Shown: positions 15,826 to 36,820 of the stretch, piece by piece | Layout of the letters: each line of letters begins with the position of its first letter | Position numbering within the stretch: position 1 is the stretch's first letter | Sequence record: MH383160 | Strand: one strand, 5' to 3' | Origin: Escherichia phage UB | Length of the DNA stretch: 64,000 bases | Notes under the pieces: model-generated | The model's database searches: none | What the model saw: the letters and a program-made list of their open reading frames with translations, nothing else | Told to the model about the DNA's origin: nothing | Program-made: the position numbers and the translations under genes

Positions 15826-15826
15826 T

Positions 15827-19816: not shown

Positions 19817-19817
19817 A

Positions 19818-21539: not shown

Positions 21540-21544
21540 TACCA

Positions 21545-23227: not shown

Positions 23228-23765
23228 AACTATATCCTTGCATTAATAAATCATAAACTACATGGACTAAATTTAATTGAATATAAAATTTTAAACCTTT
23301 AATTAATGAATTCAAATGCATTGTACTGAATAACATTAGATACATCATCTCATGCGGTTTTGTGATTAATGATTTTTGAAATACTTCAGCTTCATCATAA
23401 GGGTCTATGAACTGAAATTTGTCTTCATCATAATTTGTATTGGAATGCTGATATATAAAATAATCATCATTGGTATTGTACCACAAATATCCTTCGAATC
23501 CTGTACTAACATCTTTGGTCAATGGGGATGCTGATACTGGATTTGAACTGATTAATGCACCTACATCAACAATCCCCGTTGTATCATATTCGATTTCAAC
23601 ATCAATATCAATGTATTTCCTTGCGATATCTGCGTTTATGGACAAATATAAACTACCACCTGTCCTCTGACTCAGGATTCCATCTATCTGCGATATAGGA
23701 TGGTTGTTATTGAGGATAAGCATTATTGTACTTATCTTGTGTGCTAATAACTCTATCTCATTCAT
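23217..23765 (-). CDS. FQ-motif family protein (hypothetical)
   Basis: ORF track 182 aa; motif EAEVFQKSLIT. Confidence 0.65.
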   Translation of the reverse strand: MNEIELLAHKISTIMLILNNNHPISQIDGILSQRTGGSLYLSINADIARKYIDIDVEIEYDTTGIVDVGALISSNPVSASPLTKDVSTGFEGYLWYNTNDDYFIYQHSNTNYDEDKFQFIDPYDEAEVFQKSLITKPHEMMYLMLFSTMHLNSLIKGLKFYIQLNLVHVVYDLLMQGYSYEV

Positions 23766-23965
23766 AATTTACCTATCGATGGATACCTAGGATTTGTAGG
23801 ATGTAAAATCCTGTCCTGTACTGAAAGGTGCTCAAATGTAATTAAACTCAAATAATAATCGTAATTATCAATACCACCCTTCAAATGTATATTGTAATAC
23901 ATCTTAATACTATCTAATAATGAATCCTGTAATGCATTTAATGTTATCGTATTAATCTTTTGCAT
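23762..23965 (-). CDS. hypothetical protein
   Basis: ORF track 67 aa. Confidence 0.45.
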   Translation of the reverse strand: MQKINTITLNALQDSLLDSIKMYYNIHLKGGIDNYDYYLSLITFEHLSVQDRILHPTNPRYPSIGKL

Positions 23966-24171
23966 TAATGTTCTTCTCTTAAAAATCGTTTGATAGCATA
24001 ATCTAAATAAAATTCATAACACATGCTATCTCTGTTCTTTATCCATATTTTGTAATCGGATTTTATATTACTCAACAAATAATTTGTATTAATTGTGTAA
24101 TAATCCAAACGACCTAATCGTGCCATTTGATAGGATACTCCGTTCCATTTATTGTATAAGATATAATCCAT
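23965..24171 (-). CDS. hypothetical protein
   Basis: ORF track 68 aa; start may be internal ATG. Confidence 0.4.
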   Translation of the reverse strand: MDYILYNKWNGVSYQMARLGRLDYYTINTNYLLSNIKSDYKIWIKNRDSMCYEFYLDYAIKRFLREEH

Positions 24172-24524
24172 CCGTAATGAATAGGACTATTCTTTTCTCC
24201 TTTAGGAATAAAATATAAAGATGTACTGGGGTTATAACTGAATAAATCGTTGTTACCAAATGTAAAATGCGATAACTCAATTTTCCTTGTACCTGTACTT
24301 GGACGAAGAGCATTCTTAACACCGAAGACTGTACCTTGATATTTCTCGGAAAATTCAAACAATACATCTGTAATTAAATCACGAAACTCCGCATGTATGG
24401 TTTCAAAAAAATCTATATTACACGATGTTTTAATATCCTTGAACTCATTATAAAAAGCATGTCTTGTATTCAAAAGAAATATTACTTTTTTAAGATCCTG
24501 AACTATTTCTGGATTCATATTCAT
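24114..24524 (-). CDS. hypothetical protein
   Basis: ORF track 136 aa. Confidence 0.5.
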   Translation of the reverse strand: MNMNPEIVQDLKKVIFLLNTRHAFYNEFKDIKTSCNIDFFETIHAEFRDLITDVLFEFSEKYQGTVFGVKNALRPSTGTRKIELSHFTFGNNDLFSYNPSTSLYFIPKGEKNSPIHYGWIISYTINGTEYPIKWHD

Positions 24525-24756
24525 TTATCTCATTCTGTAACTTAAGCATCAAAATTTGCATATTAATTTTTTGTAAAAGGTGCTTGATAAATTTCTGTGC
24601 CATTTCTTCTTGTTCTTTTGTACCAAGATAAAATAACAGATTAAATTCTGATAATCGCAAAGAAAAATCTTCATCACCACCCTTTAAACAAAAATCCCTG
24701 TACTTTGTAGCGTACAAATATTGGTTTACCTTTTTATAATACCCTGTGTTTTGCAT
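24490..24756 (-). CDS. LGT-QE family small protein (hypothetical)
   Basis: ORF track 88 aa; core YLGTKEQEE. Confidence 0.55.
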   Translation of the reverse strand: MQNTGYYKKVNQYLYATKYRDFCLKGGDEDFSLRLSEFNLLFYLGTKEQEEMAQKFIKHLLQKINMQILMLKLQNEINEYESRNSSGS

Positions 24757-24944
24757 ACTATCTCCGTTCGCAACGAATTTATATAATAATGAACAAATTG
24801 TTCTTGTGAACGTGTTCCAAGAAAAATAAACATATCAAACTCTGTTGTTTTTAAATTCAATGCATCTTTTGTAAAATTCCTGTTGAATTCCCTGTACTTT
24901 TGGGTCTTCCATTCTTGATTAATTGTCTTGTATATCGATTTCAA
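24726..24944 (-). CDS. LGT-QE family small protein (hypothetical)
   Basis: ORF track 72 aa; core FLGTRSQEQ. Confidence 0.55.
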   Translation of the reverse strand: MKSIYKTINQEWKTQKYREFNRNFTKDALNLKTTEFDMFIFLGTRSQEQFVHYYINSLRTEIVCKTQGIIKR

Positions 24945-25239
24945 TGATTCTCCCTGACATACCTTGTATTAGCTTATCATACATATCGAGCATCACTTTT
25001 TGAATATTAATTAGTACTGGCATCGTGCAAATATCAATGTCGTATACTAAGCTGTACTGGAATAATTCATCTTCCTGCATTTGTACTAAATTAGGTAAAA
25101 GATAATTGTCTGCCTCTTCATCCTGGTACTTGAAATGCATAACACCATCCTTTTTGTACAAAAGAATGTCAATATCACCTAACTCTTCTGCATAACCAAA
25201 AATACATATACTCGATGTTTTTGCTATATTAAATTTCAT
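24919..25239 (-). CDS. FQ-motif family protein (hypothetical)
   Basis: ORF track 106 aa; motif EDELFQYSLVYD. Confidence 0.65.
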   Translation of the reverse strand: MKFNIAKTSSICIFGYAEELGDIDILLYKKDGVMHFKYQDEEADNYLLPNLVQMQEDELFQYSLVYDIDICTMPVLINIQKVMLDMYDKLIQGMSGRIIEIDIQDN

Positions 25240-26045
25240 GATTTATATTGTTCCTTAAAAACACCACAATGATAATTTTTATTGTATTGTGTAATACTAT
25301 AATCACACGGCATTGTCCCGCACGAAGCTCTGTGTTTTAAACGTTCCAATACCTTATCGTAATCTTTACTGAAAATGCCATTTTCATTGGGCGTAGCAAT
25401 CATTAATGCTTGCTCATATAAATCTTTTGTTCTTGTTGAACCATGCGAATGTTTGTTAAAATAAAATACATATTCAACTTCCCAATTACTTCTTAAATAG
25501 GATATTCCGTAATTGATAATCATATAATAATGTAAATCCTTGTAATAATTGAATGTCTTATCTGTATTAATCAAAATATATGAAGAACTATCATTGTCCT
25601 TAATAACAAATAAACGACCAATCTTATTTTCTTTATCTTTAACTAATTGTCTAATTTCATCACCTTCTTCAAATTTACGATGCACTTCAATTACAGATTT
25701 AGCAATCCCAGTCTGTACTAAAGATTCATATGTTGCGTACATAAAATCACTTACATGACCTAAACCAACATCTTCTTTTCTTGGTGTCTCTGTTGTATTG
25801 ACAAACATATTCAATAACTTTTGAATTGAAAAATCAGTACTGCAATCTTTATTAATTTTAATTTTTTCTCGAATCTCTTCCTTTAATGCATTAATATATT
25901 GCTCTTGTGCTGCTTCCTGATAATTTGTACCAAGATATAAACTCAAGGCAACTGAACCTTTGTAAGATGCTGATTTCTTTAAATCACCAGAACTAAATTT
26001 TTTCATAATCAAATTGGTTGCTTCAGATTCTGTTAAAAATTTCAT
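25236..26045 (-). CDS. fusion protein: N-terminal LGT-QE module plus ~200 aa C-terminal domain with Cys/His cluster (hypothetical)
   Basis: ORF track 269 aa; N-terminus LYLGTNYQEAAQEQYINALKEEI; C-terminus contains CGTMPCDYS...YHCG. Confidence 0.6.
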   Translation of the reverse strand: MKFLTESEATNLIMKKFSSGDLKKSASYKGSVALSLYLGTNYQEAAQEQYINALKEEIREKIKINKDCSTDFSIQKLLNMFVNTTETPRKEDVGLGHVSDFMYATYESLVQTGIAKSVIEVHRKFEEGDEIRQLVKDKENKIGRLFVIKDNDSSSYILINTDKTFNYYKDLHYYMIINYGISYLRSNWEVEYVFYFNKHSHGSTRTKDLYEQALMIATPNENGIFSKDYDKVLERLKHRASCGTMPCDYSITQYNKNYHCGVFKEQYKS

Positions 26046-26153
26046 ATCATTGTACCTTATCTTAAAATTGAATAGGTAAACATGTTAACACTATTCAAAT
26101 GGAGTGTCAACATTGATCTTCATTCTGTGAATATTAAATTTCATATTATTCTC

Positions 26154-26486
26154 TTATATATTGAATTCACATACGTGTTGAACAAAATTCTTTGGAAGAT
26201 GACAATGTGCAATCATCTGCTGTTGCACTTTCTTCATATCTTCTAATGTAAAACCTAAAGAATCATCGTGTACTAACATGTACTGAAACTCTTCTTCTTC
26301 AGAGATAGAACATAAATTCGGTACTGAAATTGTTTTTGTTTTTCTTGCACCTAATTTCCAATGAAAAGAATTATTGCATTTTCTGTACTCAAATATCTTC
26401 AACCCAGCACCTCTATTAAAATCAGCTACTACAATGTAACATGAATTCTTACGTACAATACAATTAAATTTACGCATTATCTCCAC
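26154..26486 (-). CDS. FQ-motif family protein (hypothetical)
   Basis: ORF track 110 aa; motif EEEEFQYMLVHD. Confidence 0.65.
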   Translation of the reverse strand: MEIMRKFNCIVRKNSCYIVVADFNRGAGLKIFEYRKCNNSFHWKLGARKTKTISVPNLCSISEEEEFQYMLVHDDSLGFTLEDMKKVQQQMIAHCHLPKNFVQHVCEFNI

Positions 26487-26722
26487 CTCTCTCCGTCATC
26501 GCAAGAGTACTGGTACGTTGTCGTTAGGGTAGGGACCATGTTGGTAATGGGCATATTATTAACAATAACCGTAACAGGCATAAGAATCGTCTCTACTCTA
26601 CTCTGTCCTGTCCTTGTGCAATTCATCTTTTGCATTTCATCTGAATCCATGAAATACAATACAAATGGTGCAATCCCAAGAACAATACACAAGACGATAA
26701 GGAAATTTAAAAAATTTAACAT
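26477..26722 (-). CDS. small putative membrane protein
   Basis: ORF track 81 aa; hydrophobic N-terminus FLNFLIVLCIVLGIAPFVLYF; AGGGT RBS. Confidence 0.45.
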   Translation of the reverse strand: MLNFLNFLIVLCIVLGIAPFVLYFMDSDEMQKMNCTRTGQSRVETILMPVTVIVNNMPITNMVPTLTTTYQYSCDDGERWR

Positions 26723-26751
26723 AATTTTTACCCTATGATTAACGTTAGTGT

Positions 26752-26780
26752 ACTATATCAGTAATGAAAAGTACTGTCAA
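26752..26780 (-). promoter_or_regulatory. sigma70-like promoter
   Basis: minus strand TTGACA-N17-TATAGT in gap upstream of 26477..26722. Confidence 0.5.
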
Positions 26781-26781
26781 G

Positions 26782-27177
26782 CTAGTACTGCACTGTTCTA
26801 ATGAAAGTACCTTTACTCATGGATTTAAGCTTATGAACCTCTTCCTGCATACCCTTAATTAACCCTAAAGGTATAGGTAAATCATGTACTAAGCTGTACT
26901 GAAAGTATTCTTCTTCAGATAAAGTACTAACATCTGGGACTCCAATTTTAGTTAGATAATCTTGATGTGTTGACCAATAAATTATATCTTCAGTACTATT
27001 GTACTCCCCATATACTGAACAATATTGATGAATATCTTTCCTGTACCCTTGAGCAATAAAGAACTTATCTACTGCATTACCAGCATTAATAGAATTCACT
27101 TCTATTGTCACAGTACTTGAGCTTGTATAACTCTTAATATTATCAGTACTCAATAATGTGTTCTTCATAATCACCAT
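26782..27177 (-). CDS. FQ-motif family protein (hypothetical)
   Basis: ORF track 131 aa; motif EEEYFQYSLVHD. Confidence 0.65.
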   Translation of the reverse strand: MVIMKNTLLSTDNIKSYTSSSTVTIEVNSINAGNAVDKFFIAQGYRKDIHQYCSVYGEYNSTEDIIYWSTHQDYLTKIGVPDVSTLSEEEYFQYSLVHDLPIPLGLIKGMQEEVHKLKSMSKGTFIRTVQY

Positions 27178-27487
27178 TAGGCTCCTGTTTAGATTCTTTC
27201 ATTAGTACTATCATCTTATGTACTAATGGCATAGGAAACTCTAAATCCCATACTAATGATTCCTGAAAGTATTCTTCTTCAGATAAAGTACTTAAATCTT
27301 TAATATCAACGTGCTTGTATATTTTATTTTCGTAATTAACAAATGATATATATAAATCACTAACATAAGAATCATAGGTAATTGTGAATGGCTTACCCTT
27401 GTAATCCATTACATCTCTACATAGACTACTTTTGATATATGTATGTTCAAATGATTTATATACCTTGAGTTGTATATTAGTTTTCAT
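27143..27487 (-). CDS. FQ-motif family protein (hypothetical)
   Basis: ORF track 114 aa; motif EEEYFQESLVWD. Confidence 0.65.
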   Translation of the reverse strand: MKTNIQLKVYKSFEHTYIKSSLCRDVMDYKGKPFTITYDSYVSDLYISFVNYENKIYKHVDIKDLSTLSEEEYFQESLVWDLEFPMPLVHKMIVLMKESKQEPNGDYEEHIIEY

Positions 27488-27752
27488 ATTTCTCTTTATT
27501 AGCTTGTTTTGTTTTATGGTGAATTAAATCTATTAATGTAATCAAGTACAACGTCAAATAGTACTCTTGTTGATCTGTACCTAATGATACAAAGAACTTG
27601 TGCTCATAGATTAAAACCTGTTTCTCTTCAAATGGACATTTAATCCTCTGTATAGGCTTAAGTAAATGATAGTACTTATTAAATCTATGATACATTTCTA
27701 GTTCTGTCAGTACTTTCATATTAAACACGTACTCCATTAGCAGTAGCATCAC
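27477..27752 (-). CDS. LGT-QE family small protein (hypothetical)
   Basis: ORF track 91 aa; core SLGTDQQEYY. Confidence 0.55.
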   Translation of the reverse strand: MMLLLMEYVFNMKVLTELEMYHRFNKYYHLLKPIQRIKCPFEEKQVLIYEHKFFVSLGTDQQEYYLTLYLITLIDLIHHKTKQANKEKYEN

Positions 27753-27942
27753 GTAAAGCTGTCAAATACTTCTGTACTGCTTGCTCTTGTTTATTTGTAC
27801 CTAAAAGTATATACATCCATAATTCACTGTAATGTACATCTTCTGTATAAGGGTTGTTGTAACTTTTTGATAATATAGCATCAAATTCAGATGCATGAAC
27901 CCTTGTGAACTTAAGAATATCTTGTTGTGTTATGATTCTCAT
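27721..27942 (-). CDS. LGT-QE family small protein (hypothetical)
   Basis: ORF track 73 aa; core LLGTNKQEQ. Confidence 0.55.
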   Translation of the reverse strand: MRIITQQDILKFTRVHASEFDAILSKSYNNPYTEDVHYSELWMYILLGTNKQEQAVQKYLTALRDATANGVRV

Positions 27943-28154
27943 ATCTTTTCCTGTACAATCTGTATAAGAATACCTATGTGTGAATTAACAGTTCTCTCTT
28001 GATGCTGTGTTCCTAAGAGTGTCAGTACTATCATATCTGAACGCAAAAGATTTTTTTCAAGTTCACTTATATCAGTTCTTGAATCAAGTGCCATATATTT
28101 GTGATTATTCTTCCTGAATAGTGCCAAGTACTCTTGATTTGATATTTCCTTCAT
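27939..28154 (-). CDS. LGT-QE family small protein (hypothetical)
   Basis: ORF track 71 aa; core LLGTQHQER. Confidence 0.55.
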   Translation of the reverse strand: MKEISNQEYLALFRKNNHKYMALDSRTDISELEKNLLRSDMIVLTLLGTQHQERTVNSHIGILIQIVQEKI

Positions 28155-28372
28155 AGTTTATTCCTGATGCCATTTAAAAGTGCTCTAATATGCTCATTGA
28201 CAAATCGCTCTTGGGAATCTGTTCCTAGAGTGAGTAGCAATCTTAAATCTGAACTTTTGATGTGATATTCTAAATCATTATTTGATTCTTGCATCAGTTT
28301 CTTAAAGGATGAGAAGTTTGCAGCCATTAGTTCAATGTATTCTGCTGTTCCTAGTGGTTTGTGTGTTGACAT
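28151..28372 (-). CDS. LGT-QE family small protein (hypothetical)
   Basis: ORF track 73 aa; core TLGTDSQER. Confidence 0.55.
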   Translation of the reverse strand: MSTHKPLGTAEYIELMAANFSSFKKLMQESNNDLEYHIKSSDLRLLLTLGTDSQERFVNEHIRALLNGIRNKL

Positions 28373-28584
28373 TTGAGTTGTATTACCCTTTTGAGTGTAT
28401 TAATGTAATTATACACATTGGCTTCTTGATAGTTTGTTCCTAGAGTAGCTTGAACATAGATTTCATTTAACTTAATAATTTTATCAGTATCTGGTAGTTT
28501 TGATGTGTTAATGGCAAATAACTTCAAAAACAGTCCATTTAAGATTGTTAGGTATTCTTCGTCGGTAATGATTCGCATTTGCAT
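28351..28584 (-). CDS. LGT-QE family small protein (hypothetical)
   Basis: ORF track 77 aa; core IYVQATLGTNYQEA; near-identical to next gene. Confidence 0.55.
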   Translation of the reverse strand: MQMRIITDEEYLTILNGLFLKLFAINTSKLPDTDKIIKLNEIYVQATLGTNYQEANVYNYINTLKRVIQLKCQHTNH

Positions 28585-28796
28585 TGGATAAACCTTTTTA
28601 GTTCTTTGATGTAATCATTAATATTGCATTCTTGGTAGTTAGTTCCCAGTGTAGCTTGAACATAGATTTCACTTACTAGAATACTTATTTCATCATCTGG
28701 TAATTTCATGCTTTTTGTTATAAACAACTTTAGAATTAAACTACTTAATAGTTGGTTGTATTCTGTGGGTGAAATGATTTTCATTTTCATTTGCAT
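28548..28796 (-). CDS. LGT-QE family small protein (hypothetical)
   Basis: ORF track 82 aa; core IYVQATLGTNYQEC. Confidence 0.55.
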   Translation of the reverse strand: MQMKMKIISPTEYNQLLSSLILKLFITKSMKLPDDEISILVSEIYVQATLGTNYQECNINDYIKELKRFIQCKCESLPTKNT

Positions 28797-29002
28797 TTTC
28801 TCAGTACTGATTCTTTAAGTTCATTGATGTAGTCCTCAACGAATTGTTCTTGTAGGTTTGTTCCGAGATATAACAGTACTCTTAAATCTGCTCTAAGTAC
28901 TTCTTTGTCATCTTCATCTATATCAGACAGTGTTATGTTTAAGAATTTACTTGAATTCTCTACAAGTAATATTACTTCTTCACCTTCTCTTAAAATTTTC
29001 AT
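28787..29002 (-). CDS. LGT-QE family small protein (hypothetical)
   Basis: ORF track 71 aa; core YLGTNLQEQ. Confidence 0.55.
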   Translation of the reverse strand: MKILREGEEVILLVENSSKFLNITLSDIDEDDKEVLRADLRVLLYLGTNLQEQFVEDYINELKESVLRKCK

Positions 29003-29208
29003 AATCTTAGTGCTTTCCTCGACAGTAGGTACAGGTAACGTTCAGTGCATTGTTCTTGATAGTTTGTTCCTAATAAATGAACTAAATGTTGTTCAGCTAT
29101 AGAAAGCTGCTTGTCTTCATAACAAGCGTATCGTTGTTTCCTATGGTATTCTTTATTGATAACATCAAGGATGATAACACCGTATTCGTCATCTGTCAAG
29201 TGTTTCAT
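28999..29208 (-). CDS. LGT-QE family small protein (hypothetical)
   Basis: ORF track 69 aa; core LLGTNYQEQ. Confidence 0.55.
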   Translation of the reverse strand: MKHLTDDEYGVIILDVINKEYHRKQRYACYEDKQLSIAEQHLVHLLGTNYQEQCTERYLYLLSRKALRL

Positions 29209-29446
29209 GCTTTTTTCTTTTTCTTATATGTTTAGTTAAAAGGTATATTAGTTTTCTGATGTATTCTTCCTGATAGTTTGTTCCTAAGAGTGCAAGAAGT
29301 TTTGCTTCAACTAAAGCTAATTGACGTTCTTCGAATGTGTGTTCCAGTATGTACTTGGGGTTTGATTTTTTAGCGTAAGCACTATTAGTCTTCATTACAA
29401 TCTTATGATATTCATTAGCTGTTAGGATTTTTAAATACTTGATCAT
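29189..29446 (-). CDS. LGT-QE family small protein (hypothetical)
   Basis: ORF track 85 aa; core LLGTNYQEE. Confidence 0.55.
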   Translation of the reverse strand: MIKYLKILTANEYHKIVMKTNSAYAKKSNPKYILEHTFEERQLALVEAKLLALLGTNYQEEYIRKLIYLLTKHIRKRKKHETLDR

Positions 29447-29666
29447 GTATCTTTTCCTTTATAGAGAATTTAAGATATCGAAGCATACTTTCAATGTAAT
29501 ACTCTTGTCTGTCAGTGCCAAGAAAGTACATGAGTTGAATGTATAAAACTTCTGCACTCCTTTCCGCTGGAGACTTGTTTGTGTCGTTTGGAAGTTGATT
29601 TGTATGTTTTCTTGATTTAATTAGTCGTTCTTTTAACTCATCGTCTGTTAAGTATTTCATTTTCAT
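29415..29666 (-). CDS. LGT-QE family small protein (hypothetical)
   Basis: ORF track 83 aa; core PAERSAEVL...FLGTDRQEY. Confidence 0.55.
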   Translation of the reverse strand: MKMKYLTDDELKERLIKSRKHTNQLPNDTNKSPAERSAEVLYIQLMYFLGTDRQEYYIESMLRYLKFSIKEKIHDQVFKNPNS

Positions 29667-29892
29667 TTACTTTTTCCTTAATAGTAATTTTAAGATATCT
29701 AATCATACGTGCAACATATTCCTCTTGTCTATCAGTTCCCAGAAGATATGGTAGTGATTGGAATAATACTTCTGCACTCCTTTCTGCTGGGGTTTGGTTT
29801 AGGTCAATTGGACGTTTATTGGTATATCTCTTGGCACGAACTAATCTCTCGACGTATTCATTATAGGTTAAGTATATCATTTCATTTTGCAT
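29638..29892 (-). CDS. LGT-QE family small protein (hypothetical)
   Basis: ORF track 84 aa; core LLGTDRQEE. Confidence 0.55.
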   Translation of the reverse strand: MQNEMIYLTYNEYVERLVRAKRYTNKRPIDLNQTPAERSAEVLFQSLPYLLGTDRQEEYVARMIRYLKITIKEKVNENEILNRR

Positions 29893-30118
29893 TTACTTTT
29901 TCCTTAATAGTAATTTTGAGATATTTAATTATACGTTCAATGTGATACTCTTGCCTATCAGTTCCAAGAAGGTATGGTAATCTTTGGAATAAAACTTCCG
30001 CACTCCTTTCTGCTGGGGTTTGATTTGTGTTGTGAGGAAGTTTATTTGTAAGTCTTTTGGATTTATCTAGTCTTTCTGTTAACTCATCATGTGTTAAGTA
30101 TATCATTTCATTTTGCAT
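29882..30118 (-). CDS. LGT-QE family small protein (hypothetical)
   Basis: ORF track 78 aa; core LLGTDRQEY. Confidence 0.55.
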   Translation of the reverse strand: MQNEMIYLTHDELTERLDKSKRLTNKLPHNTNQTPAERSAEVLFQRLPYLLGTDRQEYHIERIIKYLKITIKEKVNAK

Positions 30119-30345
30119 TTAATGTTCCTTACGTAAATTGTCTGGATTAAACAATCAATCCAAGTTTGAATATATTGGTTTTGATACTGTGTGCCTAAGA
30201 GACTCTGCATTTTAAACTCTGCTTCAAGTTCATATCTCTTTTCTATAGAAAAGCTCAAATGACCATATTCTTTATCGTATCTTCTCAGTGCTTCCCCAAT
30301 TCTATTAAATCTTTCTGCTAATCTGATGTTATTCACAATATTCAT
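30103..30345 (-). CDS. LGT-QE family small protein (hypothetical)
   Basis: ORF track 80 aa; core LLGTQYQNQ. Confidence 0.55.
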   Translation of the reverse strand: MNIVNNIRLAERFNRIGEALRRYDKEYGHLSFSIEKRYELEAEFKMQSLLGTQYQNQYIQTWIDCLIQTIYVRNIKCKMK

Positions 30346-30632
30346 CGATCAGTATACCTCAGTGGTTGGGTCATTTGATAAAAGTACAGCTTACCTTTGA
30401 TTTCCAGTAGTAACTCCGCGATTAAGCGATTTACTTCTGTATCTTGATAGTTTGTTCCTAAGAATACACCCATCTTTAACTCACGCATCATAATCATTTT
30501 CTTACTGTGTTGGATTTCTGGGTTGTGATAAATTGTATTACGTTTGTGCGTAATTTTTGTCATACGCTCGGTATATTCATCTTTACTTAAATTGATCATT
30601 TGCATGTTAATTACCCTTACATTTATTTTCAA
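30342..30632 (-). CDS. LGT-QE family small protein (hypothetical)
   Basis: ORF track 96 aa; core FLGTNYQDT. Confidence 0.55.
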   Translation of the reverse strand: MKINVRVINMQMINLSKDEYTERMTKITHKRNTIYHNPEIQHSKKMIMMRELKMGVFLGTNYQDTEVNRLIAELLLEIKGKLYFYQMTQPLRYTDR

Positions 30633-30837
30633 TACTATTCATGAGTTCTATAAGATAGTTTTCTACCTTACCTTCCTGATAGTTAGTCCCTAGGAAGTTG
30701 CACAACACGGCTTCTATGATTTTGATTTTCCTGATATCAGGCTTCAATCTTTTGTTATTGAATATTTGAATCCTTATATCTCTGGATGCATTTAAACGTT
30801 TTTGATATTCATGGTAAGTTAAATGAATCATTTTCAT
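30607..30837 (-). CDS. LGT-QE family small protein (hypothetical)
   Basis: ORF track 76 aa; core FLGTNYQEG. Confidence 0.55.
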   Translation of the reverse strand: MKMIHLTYHEYQKRLNASRDIRIQIFNNKRLKPDIRKIKIIEAVLCNFLGTNYQEGKVENYLIELMNSIENKCKGN

Positions 30838-31052
30838 TTACGTTTAACCTCTCGCTGGAGGGCATCAATTAACATCAGTACAGCATTCTCTTGATAGTTT
30901 GTTCCTAAGACTGAAAGCATCTTTATCTCATTTACTAAAATCAACTTCTTTGAGGGTTCAATAATGTGACTATCATAAACGGCCTTACGTGCTGGATAAG
31001 TTTTCGCCAGTATAACATAAAATTCGTCTTTACTTAAATTAATCATTTGCAT
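30834..31052 (-). CDS. LGT-QE family small protein (hypothetical)
   Basis: ORF track 72 aa; core VLGTNYQEN. Confidence 0.55.
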   Translation of the reverse strand: MQMINLSKDEFYVILAKTYPARKAVYDSHIIEPSKKLILVNEIKMLSVLGTNYQENAVLMLIDALQREVKRK

Positions 31053-31261
31053 TTACTTTTAACCTCTTTCTGTAGAGCGTCAATCCATAGATCTACATAC
31101 ATTTGTTGATAGTTTGTGCCTAAGAGTGCACCTACATAGAGTTCAGTTACTAGTGCGTGCTTAAGGTTAGCTTGGATGCTCTTATCGCTTGATATCATTC
31201 TCCTTCTGCTTCCACATGTTTTCAGGAGTCTGATGTATTCAAAGCCTTGTAAATTTCTCAT
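31043..31261 (-). CDS. LGT-QE family small protein (hypothetical)
   Basis: ORF track 72 aa; core LLGTNYQQM. Confidence 0.55.
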   Translation of the reverse strand: MRNLQGFEYIRLLKTCGSRRRMISSDKSIQANLKHALVTELYVGALLGTNYQQMYVDLWIDALQKEVKSKCK

Positions 31262-31473
31262 ATTTTGGATACCACCTTGTTACGTAAGGAACTTAATAAT
31301 ACGTCAGTGTAGATGTTTTGATAGTTTGTCCCTACGAATACACCCAACTTCATTTCAGCTATTATAACACATTTGTCCTCTTGTGCAATAGATTTGTTTA
31401 ACACAATACTATACACTTTTGATTTGATAGTTTGTAACCTCCAATGATACTGATACTCATTAAGGATTATCAT
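31258..31473 (-). CDS. LGT-QE family small protein (hypothetical)
   Basis: ORF track 71 aa; core FVGTNYQNI. Confidence 0.55.
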   Translation of the reverse strand: MIILNEYQYHWRLQTIKSKVYSIVLNKSIAQEDKCVIIAEMKLGVFVGTNYQNIYTDVLLSSLRNKVVSKI

Positions 31474-31708
31474 TCTCTTTCCTCCAGATTTCGGTTCTCA
31501 TGTGTTGGCAGTGTGCTTCGATGAACATATCTATTGATTTGGCAATTGCGTTTTTATCAGTGCCTGTCATCAGTACAAGCATCTCGGCCTCACAGTGAAG
31601 TAAACGCATGATATCATAGGGTAATATTTCAGATACAGTGTCATAGTGTTTCTGTGCCAGTGTCTGCAATAGTTTACAATACATTTTGTGATTTAGTCTT
31701 TGTCGCAT
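31460..31708 (-). CDS. LGT-QE family small protein, divergent (hypothetical)
   Basis: ORF track 82 aa; core LMTGTDKNAI. Confidence 0.5.
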   Translation of the reverse strand: MRQRLNHKMYCKLLQTLAQKHYDTVSEILPYDIMRLLHCEAEMLVLMTGTDKNAIAKSIDMFIEAHCQHMRTEIWRKENDNP

Positions 31709-31965
31709 TGTTTATTCCATTCTTTTTTGGCCTTGATGGTTTTATATTGGATTTGGTTTCTTAATGCTGATAAGTATCGTTGAATGAACAGATCTTGATA
31801 GTTTGTTCCAATGAATTTCATAAGATAAAGTTCACCGTTGATAACATCCACTTCAGGTGCACCATATAAGGCATTGTTTTTTCTAAGGGCATGGATTAAA
31901 GAGAATAGGGCAGTTTGATACTCAACTCCTGATAAAGTCTTCATGTTTTGTGAGCAAATAATCAT
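31693..31965 (-). CDS. LGT-QE family small protein (hypothetical)
   Basis: ORF track 90 aa; core FIGTNYQDL. Confidence 0.55.
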   Translation of the reverse strand: MIICSQNMKTLSGVEYQTALFSLIHALRKNNALYGAPEVDVINGELYLMKFIGTNYQDLFIQRYLSALRNQIQYKTIKAKKEWNKQCDKD

Positions 31966-32179
31966 CTAGTTTATCCTGTATAACATTCGTTAATTGTTCG
32001 ATATATTCTGTGCAAAACTTATCTTGATATTGAGTCCCCATAAAGTACAGCAACCATAGCTCATTAACTTTAGCTCGCATTTGGTTCCATGTAAGGCTGG
32101 GGTCACCGTAGACTATCCTTGTGATGGGGGTTAGTTTACGAATTATAGTTTCAAATTCATCATCAGTTAAGTGTTTCAT
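31922..32179 (-). CDS. LGT-QE family small protein (hypothetical)
   Basis: ORF track 85 aa; core FMGTQYQDK. Confidence 0.55.
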   Translation of the reverse strand: MKHLTDDEFETIIRKLTPITRIVYGDPSLTWNQMRAKVNELWLLYFMGTQYQDKFCTEYIEQLTNVIQDKLDDYLLTKHEDFIRS

Positions 32180-32394
32180 TTACATTTGTCCCTTATTAGA
32201 TCAGTGAGGGCAACTATGTGTGCAACAACATACTCTTCCTGAAAGTTCGTCCCCAGTACAGCCATCATGCGTATATCGGTGGTGTTTATCCTGTGTTCCC
32301 TTACACATAAACCTTCTGTGTGAGGAAGTGTAAAATATTTGTTTATTGCAGCAACGATAATTTTATTCTTCTCGGAGTTACTTAAATGTTTCAT
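32176..32394 (-). CDS. LGT-QE family small protein (hypothetical)
   Basis: ORF track 72 aa; core VLGTNFQEE. Confidence 0.55.
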   Translation of the reverse strand: MKHLSNSEKNKIIVAAINKYFTLPHTEGLCVREHRINTTDIRMMAVLGTNFQEEYVVAHIVALTDLIRDKCK

Positions 32395-32603
32395 AGTTTA
32401 CTCCTGATATAATTCTGAAGTGCAATTAAGTATTCCCCTACATAATACACCTGAAAGTCTGTATCAAGGAATGCACCCATAAGTAAATCTTTTTCTAATA
32501 CCCTTGATAAGTTAAGGTCTGCATTTGAAAGGTATATAAGTAAGATTTCACCCTGTGCGGAATTGAAACGTTTCTTATATTCTTCTGATGTTAAAAAAAT
32601 CAT
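32391..32603 (-). CDS. LGT-QE family small protein (hypothetical)
   Basis: ORF track 70 aa; core FLDTDFQVY. Confidence 0.5.
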   Translation of the reverse strand: MIFLTSEEYKKRFNSAQGEILLIYLSNADLNLSRVLEKDLLMGAFLDTDFQVYYVGEYLIALQNYIRSKL

Positions 32604-32815
32604 AATTTGCTCCTGATATATTTCTCAAGAGATGACAAATACTTTTCCTCATAATACTTCTGATAGTCTGTTCCTAAGAATGCACCCAATAGTATATCAT
32701 TTTCCAATACCTCGGCTAAGTTTAAATCAGAAGTCTCTTCGTATATTATGAGGATTTCAAGTTGTCTGGCAGCGATGCGTTCAGTATATTGATATGAGTT
32801 TTCTATAATAATCAT
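32600..32815 (-). CDS. LGT-QE family small protein (hypothetical)
   Basis: ORF track 71 aa; core FLGTDYQKY. Confidence 0.55.
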   Translation of the reverse strand: MIIIENSYQYTERIAARQLEILIIYEETSDLNLAEVLENDILLGAFLGTDYQKYYEEKYLSSLEKYIRSKL

Positions 32816-33021
32816 AGTTTACTCTTAATATCTTCTATTAAAAATCGAATCCATTCTTCAACATAATCTTCCTGATGGTTTGTGTTCAGTACAGCCAACA
32901 TGCGGATCTCTGCTCTTGCAACTTCAATTTCAGTTTTAGGAAGGTCTTTGCTGATATCCACCATTAAGTCCATGTATTTCAAGATAAGACCGTATGATTG
33001 GGTTCGTGTTATAGTTTTCAT
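32812..33021 (-). CDS. LGT-QE family small protein (hypothetical)
   Basis: ORF track 69 aa; core VLNTNHQED. Confidence 0.5.
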   Translation of the reverse strand: MKTITRTQSYGLILKYMDLMVDISKDLPKTEIEVARAEIRMLAVLNTNHQEDYVEEWIRFLIEDIKSKL

Positions 33022-33218
33022 TGTTTCCTCGTGGACAATATTTTATTTTTCAATGTATCCATATATTGAATCACCCATCTTTCCTGATAGTTAGTTCCCA
33101 AAGTAATCAAAAGGTATAACTCCATTCGTTCTACGTGTGTGTCTGTATTATAAATCTTTGTGAAGTTTTTACGTAACAGTGATTGATATTCTTCTTTATT
33201 TAAAATACGCATTTTCAT
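33018..33218 (-). CDS. LGT-QE family small protein (hypothetical)
   Basis: ORF track 66 aa; core TLGTNYQER. Confidence 0.55.
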   Translation of the reverse strand: MKMRILNKEEYQSLLRKNFTKIYNTDTHVERMELYLLITLGTNYQERWVIQYMDTLKNKILSTRKQ

Positions 33219-33412
33219 AGTTTACTCGTTATATCTTCAATTAAATACCAAATCCAATCGTTGACATACCTTTCCTGAAAGTTAGTTCCAATGAATAGTG
33301 CCATAATTAATTCACGCTTATAGGCAATACCACGGTCATGGGACTTATACATTATCATAGCCATGTTATTGATAAGTCTTTCGTGGTGCTGTTCTTTAGT
33401 TAAAATACGCAT
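33215..33412 (-). CDS. LGT-QE family small protein (hypothetical)
   Basis: ORF track 65 aa; core FIGTNFQER; first gene of the array. Confidence 0.55.
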   Translation of the reverse strand: MRILTKEQHHERLINNMAMIMYKSHDRGIAYKRELIMALFIGTNFQERYVNDWIWYLIEDITSKL

Positions 33413-33661
33413 AGGGACTCCATTAAAAATAATATCAATCCTATAATATACGATTCGTATAAAAAATCAATAACATTTTATTCGTAATACCCCTTTATCG
33501 AAGTCGCTAAGGTTACCCGCCCTTTAGCCCCCTACGCATTTTGCCATAGTCCAATCCCTTTTATTTCAAAAAAGTCAAGGGATTACCTATGCATTTTTTT
33601 AACGCATAATTTTAAAAACGCCTTGACTTTTTTCTGAATCAGTACTAGATCCCTTTACGCA
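33413..33661 (-). promoter_or_regulatory. non-coding control region upstream of the LGT-QE array
   Basis: 249-bp gap with 13-bp inverted repeat AAAAAAGTCAAGG / CCTTGACTTTTTT (33567..33633), four CTACGCATT-like repeats and a candidate TTGATT-N16-TATTAT promoter. Confidence 0.3.
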
Positions 33662-33871
33662 TTAATCCTTCGTTACGCTAACGATTATCTGTGTATCCCC
33701 GTAGTCCTGCCATACTTCCACGCCATCGGTCGCCCTGGTTAGTCGTGCTGTCATCTGCTTAATGGTCTTAGGCTTTAGTGGAACCTGTTGCAGTACTGTA
33801 CGCATAGCATCATTGACGTTATCATGTACGCCTGCAATAGTACCTAGAACGCTGTATACTGTATAGAACAT
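33662..33871 (-). CDS. hypothetical protein
   Basis: ORF track 69 aa; AGGAG RBS 9 nt upstream. Confidence 0.55.
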   Translation of the reverse strand: MFYTVYSVLGTIAGVHDNVNDAMRTVLQQVPLKPKTIKQMTARLTRATDGVEVWQDYGDTQIIVSVTKD

Positions 33872-33896
33872 ATGTATGTACTCCTGATATAGTTAA

Positions 33897-33914
33897 GGCC
33901 GCTAGAGAGCGGCC
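33897..33914 (-). other. intercistronic GC hairpin
   Basis: perfect 7-bp stem GGCCGCT-AGAG-AGCGGCC between 33940..34341 and 33662..33871, no adjacent U-run. Confidence 0.4.
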
Positions 33915-33939
33915 TATGATGTTTGGTGATGTGTATTGC

Positions 33940-34341
33940 TTACAGCCCTAAGATAGTACGTGCTTCGTTACGTTCCGTACACAGCTGCATGATGTGAGCA
34001 AGTAAGTCCTTGCTAATGTATCCGGTGTTCATAGCTTCACGAATAGATACATCATAAGCACCGAACCCCGTGCGAACGATACGCACATCATTCAGGTTAG
34101 TATTATAGATACCGCCGAGATCAACGGCTTCGAATACTACATCAACAGAATATTCATTGTTGCCATCGTGGAAGTTTTCCAGTGCAATAGTATTGGATAC
34201 CGCCCAACGTTTGCAGTTTCCAATGATGCGGCACTGTTCCGGTTGGATAGTGCCATTACTTACAGCGTACTCCAGTGCATCTTTACCAAAAGTCCGAGCC
34301 AGTACTAAAACGTCAGCGAAGGAAGTGATTGAGAAGGTCAT
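33940..34341 (-). CDS. hypothetical protein
   Basis: ORF track ORF trimmed to ATG 34341 (MTFSITSF) with TAAGGAG RBS; the upstream 21 codons are translated promoter/5'UTR. Confidence 0.6.
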   Translation of the reverse strand: MTFSITSFADVLVLARTFGKDALEYAVSNGTIQPEQCRIIGNCKRWAVSNTIALENFHDGNNEYSVDVVFEAVDLGGIYNTNLNDVRIVRTGFGAYDVSIREAMNTGYISKDLLAHIMQLCTERNEARTILGL

Positions 34342-34395
34342 GATAAAACTCCTTAATTTAGGAGGGAGAACCATTTCCCCCTCTCTATGTAAAAC

Positions 34396-34423
34396 ATTAT
34401 ACATGAATCTAAGTACTATGCAA
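34396..34423 (-). promoter_or_regulatory. sigma70-like promoter
   Basis: minus strand TTGCAT-N16-TATAAT, then 5'UTR hairpin and RBS. Confidence 0.55.
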
Positions 34424-34430
34424 GTACTTT

Positions 34431-34763
34431 TTACATTTTGATACCTGGATTCAGGTAGCGGTGAGATCCATATTCTGGATCGGTTTCGGTCCAGTACTGT
34501 AAATCAATAGTGCCTTTAGCGTTAATCTTGTCTACCAGCTTATTCATCTTAGCGTATACTACATCGGCATCGATGCGTTTAAAGCCAGTAGCTTTAGTGA
34601 AGTAGTAGTGATTTGCTTCACTATCATTGAGGATATACCGAGCACCGTTTGCAGTCTGTGCGATAATGATTGAGTATTCTACTTCACGATCCAGTCCGTC
34701 GATGAATACAGATGAAACATTGGTACGGATGAAAGCTTTAACGATAGCGATTGAAGTACTCAT
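34431..34763 (-). CDS. hypothetical protein
   Basis: ORF track 110 aa; AGGAG RBS 7 nt upstream. Confidence 0.6.
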   Translation of the reverse strand: MSTSIAIVKAFIRTNVSSVFIDGLDREVEYSIIIAQTANGARYILNDSEANHYYFTKATGFKRIDADVVYAKMNKLVDKINAKGTIDLQYWTETDPEYGSHRYLNPGIKM

Positions 34764-34816
34764 TTTGAATCTCCTAACTTTGTGGGCCGTCGCACCATTG
34801 CCGCCCTACGAGATAC

Positions 34817-34845
34817 ATTATCGCAGTACTGATATACTTTGTCAA
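34817..34845 (-). promoter_or_regulatory. sigma70-like promoter
   Basis: minus strand TTGACA-N17-GATAAT. Confidence 0.5.
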
Positions 34846-34924
34846 TACTTTTTTATTAATAGTTTTAGTTCCACCAGCAGATAGTTACTCACCGTTATTA
34901 ACTATATATTTTGGATACACCTAT

Positions 34925-34938
34925 GCACCCTGTGGGCT
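34925..34938. repeat. conserved intergenic box GCACCC-N3-GGGCT
   Basis: gcaccctgtgggct; same box recurs at 37178, 40450, 42807, 44471, 50403 and reversed at 48367, 52116. Confidence 0.5.
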
Positions 34939-34968
34939 AGTTTTTGTCTATGCGTATATAATAGCAAA

Positions 34969-34997
34969 GGGACTGACCGGAGTCAATCCTTTTTTTA
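34969..34997. terminator. intrinsic terminator hairpin (plus-strand geometry, possibly bidirectional)
   Basis: GGGACTGAC-CGGA-GTCAATCC followed by T8 on plus strand; ends minus-strand gene 35008..35208. Confidence 0.5.
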
Positions 34998-35007
34998 TTC
35001 TTTTTTG

Positions 35008-35208
35008 TTAGATGATTCTCCAATCATCAACGATCATGGTAAGATACCGAACCAGTGATTCGAGTGATTCGTGTTCTCGATAGTCTGCCGCTCCACCAGC
35101 GGTACAAGTACAGCCGATTACGCCGTTTTGTAGTTCCTGGATCTTTACGTCGATCTGGTTGGCTTTAGCTTCTTTCAGTACTTCAACCAGGGCGATAGCG
35201 ATAGACAT
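35008..35208 (-). CDS. hypothetical protein
   Basis: ORF track 66 aa; GGAG RBS. Confidence 0.55.
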   Translation of the reverse strand: MSIAIALVEVLKEAKANQIDVKIQELQNGVIGCTCTAGGAADYREHESLESLVRYLTMIVDDWRII

Positions 35209-35263
35209 AATGTTTTACTCCAAACTATTGGCGGGAGAACTATTCCCCCGCTCTATGTAAAAC

Positions 35264-35291
35264 ATTATACATTACTGGTTAGTACTGTCAA
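35264..35291 (-). promoter_or_regulatory. sigma70-like promoter
   Basis: minus strand TTGACA-N16-TATAAT followed by hairpin GCGGGGGAATAGTTCTCCCGC. Confidence 0.55.
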
Positions 35292-35298
35292 ATAGTTT

Positions 35299-35556
35299 TT
35301 ATGAAATATCTTCGATGTAGTCGGCCCATTTCATTTTTTCAGTACTGTCAATGGCTACCGGATTATTTGGATCAAACCATTCACCATCCCCGCAATACAT
35401 ACCCACGGCAACGGTTTTATAGCCATCCTGGGCAGTACTCCACGACATAGCACGATAGATATGGCCTTTAACTGGTTGCAGTACTGGTAACGTTTTATGG
35501 TCTTCTACGTAGGCCATAGCTTGAGGATTTACCCGATATTGTGTGAATTGTTCCAT
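35299..35556 (-). CDS. hypothetical protein
   Basis: ORF track 85 aa; AGGGG RBS. Confidence 0.6.
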   Translation of the reverse strand: MEQFTQYRVNPQAMAYVEDHKTLPVLQPVKGHIYRAMSWSTAQDGYKTVAVGMYCGDGEWFDPNNPVAIDSTEKMKWADYIEDIS

Positions 35557-35584
35557 TATGTTTCCCCTTGTTGTTAGTAAAGTT

Positions 35585-35613
35585 ATTACATCAGTACTAT
35601 CAAGCTATGTCAA
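35585..35613 (-). promoter_or_regulatory. sigma70-like promoter
   Basis: minus strand TTGACA-N17-TGTAAT. Confidence 0.45.
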
Positions 35614-35632
35614 TAGTACTGAAATAAAACTT

Positions 35633-35857
35633 TTAGATTAGATTATTGATGCCGTTGATGGTAGACTCGCTTTCTTCTTTCTCCCATTGGCGGTAGTACT
35701 TCCATGCTTCATGATATGTGGCGATTAGTTCATCTTTTTGATCCTGAGTACATGCCAGTACTGAATCACTGTAAGCGGTGTTATAGATAGAATCAAATGA
35801 TTTCTTATCTGCCGCCAGGTTTACTACTGCCCGGATCAGGTCATCGTGATTAGCCAT
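35633..35857 (-). CDS. hypothetical protein
   Basis: ORF track ORF trimmed to ATG 35857 (MANHDDLIRAV) with AAGGAG RBS. Confidence 0.55.
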   Translation of the reverse strand: MANHDDLIRAVVNLAADKKSFDSIYNTAYSDSVLACTQDQKDELIATYHEAWKYYRQWEKEESESTINGINNLI

Positions 35858-35905
35858 CGTATTACTCCTTATTAGTGGGGGAGGATATCTCCCCCTATGC
35901 AAAAC

Positions 35906-35933
35906 ATTATACTTTGTTTTAGTTATTATGCAA
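35906..35933 (-). promoter_or_regulatory. sigma70-like promoter
   Basis: minus strand TTGCAT-N16-TATAAT; hairpin GGGGGAGATATCCTCCCCC in 5'UTR. Confidence 0.55.
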
Positions 35934-36189
35934 GTACTTTTTTCATATAAACATTAAATTCTACACCGCCGTAACCTTCTACGATGATATGTTTTGCGTT
36001 ATCACGTTTGCACATAGTGAAACCGTTGTTGATATGTTCTGCATTTTCCAGGGATACATCACCGATTGCAGCACATACGGCACTAATAACAGTATTCCGC
36101 AAAGTACTGGTATCATTAGCGGTCATAGTAGTTTGCAGTACTACGTTGTCGTATACGTGTGCATTGATAGTGATTTCGATAGTGTTCAT
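35926..36189 (-). CDS. hypothetical protein
   Basis: ORF track 87 aa; AGGAG RBS. Confidence 0.6.
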   Translation of the reverse strand: MNTIEITINAHVYDNVVLQTTMTANDTSTLRNTVISAVCAAIGDVSLENAEHINNGFTMCKRDNAKHIIVEGYGGVEFNVYMKKVLA

Positions 36190-36240
36190 GGTGTATCTCC
36201 TGGACTAGCGGGAGAACTATTCCCCCGCTCTATGTAAAAC

Positions 36241-36268
36241 ATTATACGTTAATCTAACTACAATGCAA
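36241..36268 (-). promoter_or_regulatory. sigma70-like promoter
   Basis: minus strand TTGCAT-N16-TATAAT. Confidence 0.55.
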
Positions 36269-36275
36269 GTACTTT

Positions 36276-36467
36276 TTAAATTTTATTTCCGATATAGTCC
36301 GGCCTGTTCTTTTCGGTCATACGCTTAAGCATTTTTTGCATATGGCTTATTGCTTGTAGTGTATCCTCTTCCAGGGATGAATCGAGATAATCAGGATCAT
36401 TCTTTACCTTGCAATGATTATGATAGCGTAGTACTGCCAGTACTTTTTTAACTTCTTCAACTGTCAT
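36276..36467 (-). CDS. hypothetical protein
   Basis: ORF track 63 aa; 4-nt overlap with upstream gene. Confidence 0.5.
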   Translation of the reverse strand: MTVEEVKKVLAVLRYHNHCKVKNDPDYLDSSLEEDTLQAISHMQKMLKRMTEKNRPDYIGNKI

Positions 36468-36736
36468 AATAAGTACTCCACTTCGTTAGCTTTCAGGTTA
36501 GTATCAATCATCAGTGGTTTTTTGTAGTCCACAAAACGATTAGTTTTCTCGATGGCGAATCCCATATAATCCAGCTTACTTACCGTGCATTCATTCTTAA
36601 AAACTTCTTTCGCTGCATTGATGGCTGATTCAATTGATAACCGACCATCTAAGTTAATGTTTCCAAATGATCCACCAGCAGAAGTAGGATTACCGTTCAT
36701 ATCTTTAATGATCATAGTAGCGGAGTAGCTAGACAT
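36464..36736 (-). CDS. hypothetical protein
   Basis: ORF track 90 aa. Confidence 0.6.
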   Translation of the reverse strand: MSSYSATMIIKDMNGNPTSAGGSFGNINLDGRLSIESAINAAKEVFKNECTVSKLDYMGFAIEKTNRFVDYKKPLMIDTNLKANEVEYLL

Positions 36737-36789
36737 AATTTTGTTTCCTTTTATTGGTGGGGAGAACTATTCTCCCCTTGATGTAAACT

Positions 36790-36817
36790 ATTATACAGTA
36801 CTGATATACTTTGTCAA
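36790..36817 (-). promoter_or_regulatory. sigma70-like promoter
   Basis: minus strand TTGACA-N16-TATAAT; hairpin GGGGAGAATAGTTCTCCCC in 5'UTR. Confidence 0.55.
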
Positions 36818-36820
36818 TAC

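Follow-up and report, generated by a model that had tools for sequence, protein, structure and literature searches.

In the 64,000-nucleotide stretch of Escherichia phage UB analysed here (sequence record MH383160; hereafter the window), 27 consecutive open reading frames (ORFs) on the minus strand encode one strongly diverged family of small proteins. The ORF listing shows that they have 65-90 aa and fill 27477..33412 (~6 kb). The family is by far the largest paralog family in the window. The frames are intact, carry the hallmarks of coupled translation, are kept slot by slot in related jumbo phages, and lie directly beside a long terminal repeat rich in host-type promoters. A serious, albeit tentative, possibility is that the array is an early, coupled operon encoding a repertoire of host-directed binders that serve in host takeover or anti-defence.

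A protein family with maintained reading frames

All 27 minus-strand ORFs of the original prediction are present, and their extents hold for 25 of them. The start sites of the other two are better set at internal ATGs, at 27719 (instead of GTG 27752) and at 30605 (instead of TTG 30632). Both ATGs restore the family N-terminus MK/MQ-x-L-T and have a Shine-Dalgarno core upstream, and the size range, first given as 65-96 aa, is reduced accordingly. A profile hidden Markov model (HMM) was built from the 27 array proteins and searched against all 700 stop-to-stop ORFs of ≥35 aa in the six frames of the window. It recovered the 27 proteins and exactly five more (E 2e-6 to 4e-13), and no match on the plus strand or in another frame. 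The five correspond to the additional members that had been noted originally at 12034..12421 and 24490..24944 and to the N-terminal module of the protein encoded at 25236..26045. The LGTxxQE core near the middle of the proteins is likewise as first described: the family consensus reads LGTNYQExxVxxYIxxLxxxIxxK, in which G, T, Q and L are at least 90% conserved and G48, T49, Q52 and L63 are nearly invariant. Beyond this motif the members differ widely. Pairwise identity among the 32 proteins of the window is 20-39%, with about 25% being typical, and the alignment is devoid of any conserved stretch of 7-10 columns.

The concern that the repeats might exist at the DNA level only, with frames not maintained across the copies, is not borne out. 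Tandem Repeats Finder reports as sole tandem DNA repeat a recent triplication (29452-30121, period 226, 74% matches), and outside of it the copies resemble each other at the DNA level only over the ~50 nt of motif-coding sequence. Thus, the array represents a protein-level family and not a DNA-level repeat. All 27 frames are intact in the window, and the array frames are intact also in every relative examined. The pooled ratio of non-synonymous to synonymous substitution rates (dN/dS) of the array is 0.33-0.40 in comparison with six relatives (dS 0.09-0.34), while neighbouring non-family genes show 0.36-0.43 and the genes of the terminal repeat 0.15-0.32.

Ribosome-binding sites had been proposed as a touchstone for translation, and a Shine-Dalgarno core (4 nt, at -17..-4) is found before 21 of the 27 starts, compared to 15% of the remaining ATGs of the array (Fisher p = 3e-10). 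As originally noted, neighbouring genes overlap or abut: 12 of the 26 junctions are 4-nt ATGA overlaps, an arrangement typical of translational coupling, and the largest gap is 1 nt. The array genes look translated, and no convincing terminator was found between the terminal repeat and the array or inside the array. The 27 genes would be expressed from one long polycistronic, translationally coupled mRNA.

Distribution and slot-wise conservation

Sequence matches place the source phage in the genus Asteriusvirus, as a Rak2-like jumbo coliphage. The array region shares 85-94% identity with 35 phage records, which are without exception Asteriusvirus jumbo phages of Escherichia or Salmonella and include BAU.Micro_ELP-22, phAPEC6, PBECO4 and 121Q; the array genes are annotated as 'hypothetical protein' throughout. 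When a single family member is used as query, the matches in cultured phages are restricted to the same 35 records. With a consensus query and the HMM, at least nine scattered members were detected within a 30-kb segment of the Klebsiella phage K64-1 (Alcyoneusvirus), where they lie in small clusters rather than in one long array. Two of these (L009 15552..15926 and 18903..19253) share a C-terminal extension of ~55 aa. The divergent coliphage Turkey5 contains a 21-member array. An HMM scan of 1.84 billion cluster representatives retrieved only 102 clusters, nearly all of which are standalone proteins with lengths of 52-96 aa. Two divergent metagenomic members gave no related loci in IMG/VR and no tblastn match in cultured phages. 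Synteny is the same on metagenomic contigs bearing family members, and the family entries labelled 'E. coli' reside on ~350-kb contigs, which are Asteriusvirus genomes inside bacterial assemblies.

The main array comprises 23-29 copies in close relatives and 21-31 over the loci compared; phage 121Q, for example, has 23 copies in the main array and 2 nearby. When 283 members of 10 genomes were clustered at 60% identity, 58 ortholog groups resulted. Twenty-three of these occur in unchanged order in at least 8 of the 10 genomes, and insertions, losses and replacements are concentrated at a few array slots. Neighbouring paralogs resemble each other more closely than distant ones do (0.32 vs. 0.25, permutation p < 1e-4), in keeping with an origin of the array by tandem duplication. 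On one metagenome contig of the ENA (P0103), two adjacent paralogs, corresponding to the orthologs of window genes 29189..29446 and 28999..29208, are fused in frame into a 154-aa protein; this is a single instance and reflects either a fusion or an assembly error.

No analysis of the family was found in the literature mentioning Asteriusvirus. Hua et al. (2017; mBio, PMC5646251) refer in one sentence, without coordinates, to 'very similar' genes as evidence for genome expansion, and the phAPEC6 paper and a 2026 review (PMC13282480) repeat this point. The sentence probably describes the same array, although its reference to this family could not be confirmed. The existence of the array was therefore known in passing, while the findings on its fold and motif logic, on its exact location at the junction with the repeat, on the conservation of its slots, and on its selective constraint and taxonomic range are new.

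According to the ratchet of Hua et al., the array would largely be filler, i.e., tandem duplications that expand the genome to fill a larger capsid, with copies of little or no function. The greater likeness of adjacent copies and the recent triplication are consistent with this explanation, and it has been taken up again in the 2026 review. The family departs from the published description, however, in its identity of about 25%, its purifying selection and its slot-by-slot conservation between genomes. Paralogs that are far from 'very similar' nevertheless have same-slot orthologs across genomes at dS values of up to 0.34, all frames have stayed open, dN/dS is well below 1, and Shine-Dalgarno sequences and coupling overlaps are maintained. 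Filler is therefore disfavoured by the selection and synteny data and appears highly improbable.

Predicted fold and variable surface

The AlphaFold2 model of the gene 11 protein (31043..31261), built with a 32-sequence alignment, shows a compact, self-contained four-helix domain (pLDDT 97.7, pTM 0.83). The helices are predicted at residues 6-14, 17-25, 31-45 and 52-71, and a β-bridge connects residue 2 to T49. As we read the model, LGTxxQE would constitute the turn between helices 3 and 4 together with the N-capping box of helix 4, and would thus be a structural rather than a catalytic element. The conserved columns correspond to the hydrophobic core and to E8, E40, G48, T49, Q52, E53 and K70. 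Entropy is >3 bits at positions 15-35, which cover helix 2, the loop and the beginning of helix 3. This segment also contains indels, and helix 2 and the following loop are completely different between paralogs. Between orthologs, dN/dS is 0.38 in the variable region and thus near the values of the remaining protein, with 0.21 in the motif and 0.29 in the helix 3 core. The value for the variable region indicates that paralog-specific residues are constrained and not free to drift, which argues for a function of its own for each copy.

The model has no specific structural neighbour in the PDB or among viral structures. At the sequence level, the family is that of phrog_4148 in PHROGs v4 ('unknown function'). 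Each of the eight tested members matches it (E 1e-10 to 5e-24), with matches covering profile positions 1 to ~72 of 74. The PHROG entry comes without function, structure, genome context or copy number. Searches of Pfam, NCBIfam, PADLOC and PDB sequences with single members and with the 32- and 102-member sets gave no consistent match.

A DNA-binding fold had been put forward initially as an alternative to a two-helix bundle. Neither a helix-turn-helix fold nor a helix-turn-helix match in Pfam was found, and this alternative is not supported. In a broader form, this explanation holds that the proteins are small nucleic-acid-binding regulators, each with its own DNA or RNA site, which time phage genes or silence host genes. 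The surroundings of LGT superficially resemble the turn of a helix-turn-helix, 21 of the 32 members are basic (pI >7.5), and the SPO1 takeover protein Gp49 is described as RNA-binding in the title of PMC10531801. With isoelectric points that range from 4.4 to 9.8 across the family, and with no helix-turn-helix match, such a role is distinctly unlikely.

The array adjoins a terminal repeat

The position of the array relative to the genome ends was derived from vB_Ec-M-J and fEgEco12, two relatives with determined termini. Position 1 of both phages maps to window position 53219, and the inner ends of their repeats coincide at a single nucleotide, 33510 (the boundary between ...GGGCGGGTAACCT and TAGCGAC). 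For fEgEco12, the repeat was established with PhageTerm and with restriction digests (PMC13070987), and the repeat end of vB_Ec-M-J is that of the record annotation. The two mapped termini define a direct terminal repeat at 33510..53219 with a length of 19,710 bp, and its location inside the window points to an assembly with a collapsed repeat or to a permuted genome. The first ATG of the array lies 98 nt beyond the last base of the repeat and ~20 kb from the left terminus. The array is single-copy and co-oriented with the repeat genes, as is every gene between 57.9 kb and position 1.

Within the repeat, the minus strand, which is the gene strand, carries 13 perfect TTGACA-N16/17-TATAAT sites (35264..52854), compared to 0.09 expected by chance. 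All perfect σ70 sites of the window are inside the repeat and none are outside, and they point toward the array. The hexamer AGTACT is present in the spacer of 11 of the 13 promoters, directly before the -10 element in nine, and also upstream of the array; it may serve as an operator that shuts off early transcription.

Between the repeat and the first gene lies the array leader (33413..33509, minus strand), 97 nt of unique sequence with a σ70-like promoter and a GGAG Shine-Dalgarno sequence. The promoter-like site, TTGATT-16-TATTAT at 33470..33443 (TTGACT in relatives), is conserved in six phages. The leader is followed upstream by the innermost 152 nt of the left terminal repeat (33510..33661, minus strand), which are non-coding and 96% conserved. 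As a whole, the intergenic block 33413..33661, which extends across the repeat boundary, is 96% identical across six phages, compared to 85-94% for the flanking genes, and has a high GC content for this genome. It may also function as a terminase or end-processing site. The original prediction considered the entire block as the control region of the array. The conserved σ70-like site supports this assignment, but the block is at the same time the repeat junction, and only the part nearest to the array is its own leader. The repeat edge inside the control region makes read-through from the repeat promoters possible. Because the array adjoins a repeat that is packed with host-type promoters pointing at it, early or delayed-early transcription by the host RNA polymerase is most likely.

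A possible repertoire of host-directed binders

In the proposed mechanism, host RNA polymerase would transcribe the array early or delayed-early, and coupled translation of one long mRNA would yield the proteins. These products, soluble cytoplasmic four-helix paralogs of ~70 residues, would represent a repertoire of binders or inhibitors that share a scaffold. The paralogs would differ in the host protein that they recognise, be it a takeover target or an anti-phage defence effector, each via its own helix-2/loop surface. The timing of expression, the protein-binding function and the host targets are steps that we infer. The family proteins are not virion components: the virion proteome of phAPEC6 contains 62 proteins, none of which falls between gp347 and gp549, and the family corresponds to gp462 and gp467-489 in this phage. 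Asteriusvirus lacks a chimallin nucleus (bioRxiv 10.1101/2024.12.31.630880), and the phage DNA is thus presumably exposed to host defences. It is conceivable, yet somewhat unlikely, that the ~30 paralogs per genome constitute a counter-immunity repertoire, in which each protein acts as a tight stoichiometric inhibitor of a different defence or toxin effector. If true, the repertoire, with its 58 ortholog groups across 10 genomes and a four-helix scaffold not classified before, would be the phage counterpart of bacterial polyimmunity loci and of the multigene families of poxviruses and African swine fever virus. It would also help to explain how a jumbo phage without a nucleus is able to infect diverse strains of E. 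coli and Salmonella and to persist in them.

Several observations weigh against host-directed binders. Early timing is not secure, because the promoter-like site of the array itself matches the consensus at only 9-10 of 12 positions, unlike the perfect promoters of the repeat. The literature that mentions the genus yielded neither a transcriptome nor an infected-cell proteome of an Asteriusvirus. No resemblance to known host-takeover or anti-defence proteins was detected in Pfam, NCBIfam, PADLOC or the PDB. Anti-defence loci usually turn over fast between related phages, while the gene order of the array is unusually stable and orthologs show no surplus of amino-acid changes in the variable region, the dN/dS of which (0.38) is not raised as in an arms race. 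Conserved targets or a phage-internal role fit this stability at least as well. In addition, the conserved polar residues E8, E40, N50, Q52, E53 and K70 could mark a shared partner and not a purely structural cap.

A phage-internal role would imply that the paralogs engage a common partner, as adaptors or chaperones on one phage or host machine, or that they are subunits of a non-virion hetero-oligomer. The placement of the conserved polar set around the invariant GT..Q turn is in line with this explanation, as are the stable order and number of ~23 paralogs. The module is also found fused to other domains, namely in the 269-aa protein of the window and in the two K64-1 members with a C-terminal extension, and two adjacent paralogs are joined in frame in one metagenomic case. 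On the other hand, the monomer is predicted to be compact and self-contained (pTM 0.83), the two-paralog fusion is a single case that could be a sequencing error, and a copy number of 21-31 among the loci compared argues against a fixed stoichiometry. We consider a phage-internal role unlikely and retain the repertoire of host-directed binders as our tentative interpretation.

Gene inventory of the array and dispersed members

The array genes, all on the minus strand, are numbered from the leader; E values refer to the family HMM unless phrog_4148 is named. Gene 1 (33215..33412, 65 aa, E 1.4e-20; phrog_4148 E 7e-20) and gene 2 (33018..33218, 66 aa, E 1.3e-20) are followed by gene 3 (32812..33021, 69 aa, E 7.5e-23), in which NT replaces GT. 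The product of gene 4 (32600..32815, 71 aa, E 3.8e-20) is acidic, with a pI of 4.4, and shares 53% identity with that of gene 5 (32391..32603, 70 aa, E 1.7e-22), where DT replaces GT. Genes 6 (32176..32394, 72 aa, E 3.7e-25), 7 (31922..32179, 85 aa, E 3.7e-26; phrog_4148 E 9e-21) and 8 (31693..31965, 90 aa, E 4.1e-21) precede the divergent gene 9 (31460..31708, 82 aa, E 1.1e-19), which has a 6-residue insertion after GT. Gene 10 (31258..31473, 71 aa, E 1.7e-24) is adjacent to the gene of the modelled protein, gene 11 (72 aa, E 6.5e-27; phrog_4148 E 1e-21). Gene 12 (30834..31052, 72 aa, E 7.9e-24) and gene 13 (30607..30837, 76 aa, E 3.6e-26; phrog_4148 E 5e-24) are followed by gene 14 (30342..30605, E 2.3e-25), with 87 aa when read from ATG 30605, and by gene 15 (30103..30345, 80 aa, E 3.7e-20).

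The recent triplication involves genes 16 (29882..30118, 78 aa, E 5.4e-25), 17 (29638..29892, 84 aa, E 4.9e-24) and 18 (29415..29666, 83 aa, E 1.2e-25), and the proteins of genes 16 and 17 are 73% identical. Downstream of it are genes 19 (29189..29446, 85 aa, E 1.8e-21) and 20 (28999..29208, 69 aa, E 1e-21), as well as gene 21 (28787..29002, 71 aa, E 4.9e-23), which encodes another acidic protein. Gene 22 (28548..28796, 82 aa, E 9.5e-26; phrog_4148 E 3e-17) and gene 23 (28351..28584, 77 aa, E 4.3e-25) share 54% identity. The array ends with genes 24 (28151..28372, 73 aa, E 2.9e-22), 25 (27939..28154, 71 aa, E 2.2e-22), 26 (27721..27942, 73 aa, E 2.2e-22) and 27 (27477..27719, E 8.8e-23), the last of which encodes 80 aa from ATG 27719.

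The dispersed members are located on the minus strand as well. One pair consists of 24726..24944 (72 aa, E 6.4e-12) and 24490..24756 (88 aa, E 1.6e-6), the other of 12203..12421 (72 aa, E 2.3e-6), in which GS replaces GT, and 12034..12225 (63 aa, E 3.9e-13; phrog_4148 E 1e-16). The fifth is the N-terminal module, ~65 residues in length, of the 269-aa protein encoded on the minus strand at 25236..26045 (E 1.3e-10; phrog_4148 E 1e-10 over residues 1-63). The C-terminal ~190 aa of this protein are an orphan, for which the search for homologs returned one near-identical cluster only and no functional lead.

Other features of the window

Paralog families account for 72 of the 167 called genes of the window. 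Two further families on the strand of the array are tandem or dispersed. Ten same-strand paralogs of 106-161 aa (phrog_13866/15629 group) are found at 8299..27487 and include the two genes directly downstream of the array, and eight same-strand paralogs of ~150 aa (phrog_9317) are found at 7420..16318. On the plus strand, 57978..63621 encodes five paralogs of 251-449 aa. Three of them were tested, and all three match the RCC1-like phrog_4219 ('regulator of chromosome condensation'). The five paralogs are probably the counterparts of the phAPEC6 virion proteins of ~41 kDa that are named 'DNA condensation proteins' (gp003-010, gp549 and gp551). At the right end of the unique region, 53493..57893 harbours several small families of ~60-aa genes on the minus strand, which are oriented toward the right-hand copy of the terminal repeat; the GC skew changes sign nearby.

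The terminal repeat has additional features. A hairpin, AAAGGGATTGACTCCGGTCAGTCCCTTT, is repeated at 40518..40491 and 37251..37224, with variants at 34989..34970 and 44540..44521. It contains a TTGACT -35 element within the stem, followed by TATTAT, and we take it to resemble the promoter/stem-loop cassettes (PeSL) of T4-type phages. The first ~1.7 kb from the left terminus (~51600..53219) contain no minus-strand ORF of ≥60 aa, and the only ORF noted there is a plus-strand ORF of 65 aa (51920..52117). In the two end-determined relatives, the left terminus begins with a hairpin (AGTAGGCAGAGGAAGTCTGCC) and AAAGTAATC repeats. An 84-aa gene within the repeat (38451..38705, minus strand) matches the ParE-like toxin domain PF24732 (E 6.4e-11, 42.5 bits, cut-off 24.4), and its ortholog on a metagenomic contig bears the same PF24732 mark.

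Comparison with known systems and significance

Tandem families of diverged paralogs near a genome terminus, with variable copy number, are known from eukaryotic viruses, e.g., the MGF110/360/505 families of African swine fever virus and the Bcl-2-like and ankyrin families of poxviruses. In these multigene families, each paralog binds a different host immune component. The array shares with them the tandem arrangement of diverged paralogs (20-39% identity) close to a terminus and the variation between 21 and 31 copies among loci. It differs from them in its unrelated sequence and fold, its bacterial host and its much more stable gene order.

The colicin/pyocin DNase immunity proteins provide a second comparison. 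Im7 and Im9 (PF01320) are four-helix immunity proteins of ~85 residues, in which a conserved element and a hypervariable helix set partner specificity, and immunity genes also occur as tandem arrays of diverged paralogs ('polyimmunity'). The small four-helix fold with a conserved element and a hypervariable helix is common to both groups. Homology was rejected: hhalign of A1 against Im2/7/8/9, for which the Im7 sequence was checked against PDB 1AYI, gave a probability of 0.44% and E 0.13 over 11 columns, no member matched PF01320, and no structural match to the distorted four-helix Im fold was obtained.

Among phages, SPO1's module for host takeover is situated within the terminal redundancy and is made up of small, early and highly expressed genes (PMC6873191), the products of which bind host machines such as RNA polymerase and ClpC. 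The array resembles the SPO1 and T5 modules in that small genes are clustered near a terminal repeat and point inward from the genome end. The modules of these phages have consensus host promoters and strong ribosome-binding sites. In the array, a Shine-Dalgarno core precedes 21 of the 27 starts and the only promoter-like site matches 9-10 of 12 positions, and the 13 perfect promoters all lie in the repeat. The modules of SPO1 and T5 are composed of unrelated genes, however, while the array consists of one expanded family. They are also situated at or in the repeat, while the array is just outside and has a weaker promoter. A gene set within the terminal redundancy was ruled out for the array, since it starts 98 nt outside the repeat (last base 33510).

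Asteriusviruses are in development for therapy and persist in bacterial isolates, and the array represents ~5% of their genes. The literature reading is corrected by the present data, which describe an old, ordered and selectively maintained set instead of 'highly similar' padding duplicates. If the paralogs are specific binders, they would provide ~30 natural variants of a tiny scaffold whose fold is predicted with confidence, with at least 58 ortholog groups across relatives. Each variant may then point to a host protein that is important during infection by a nucleus-less jumbo phage, and the family would constitute a probe set for E. coli takeover and defence biology as well as a possible scaffold for engineered binders.

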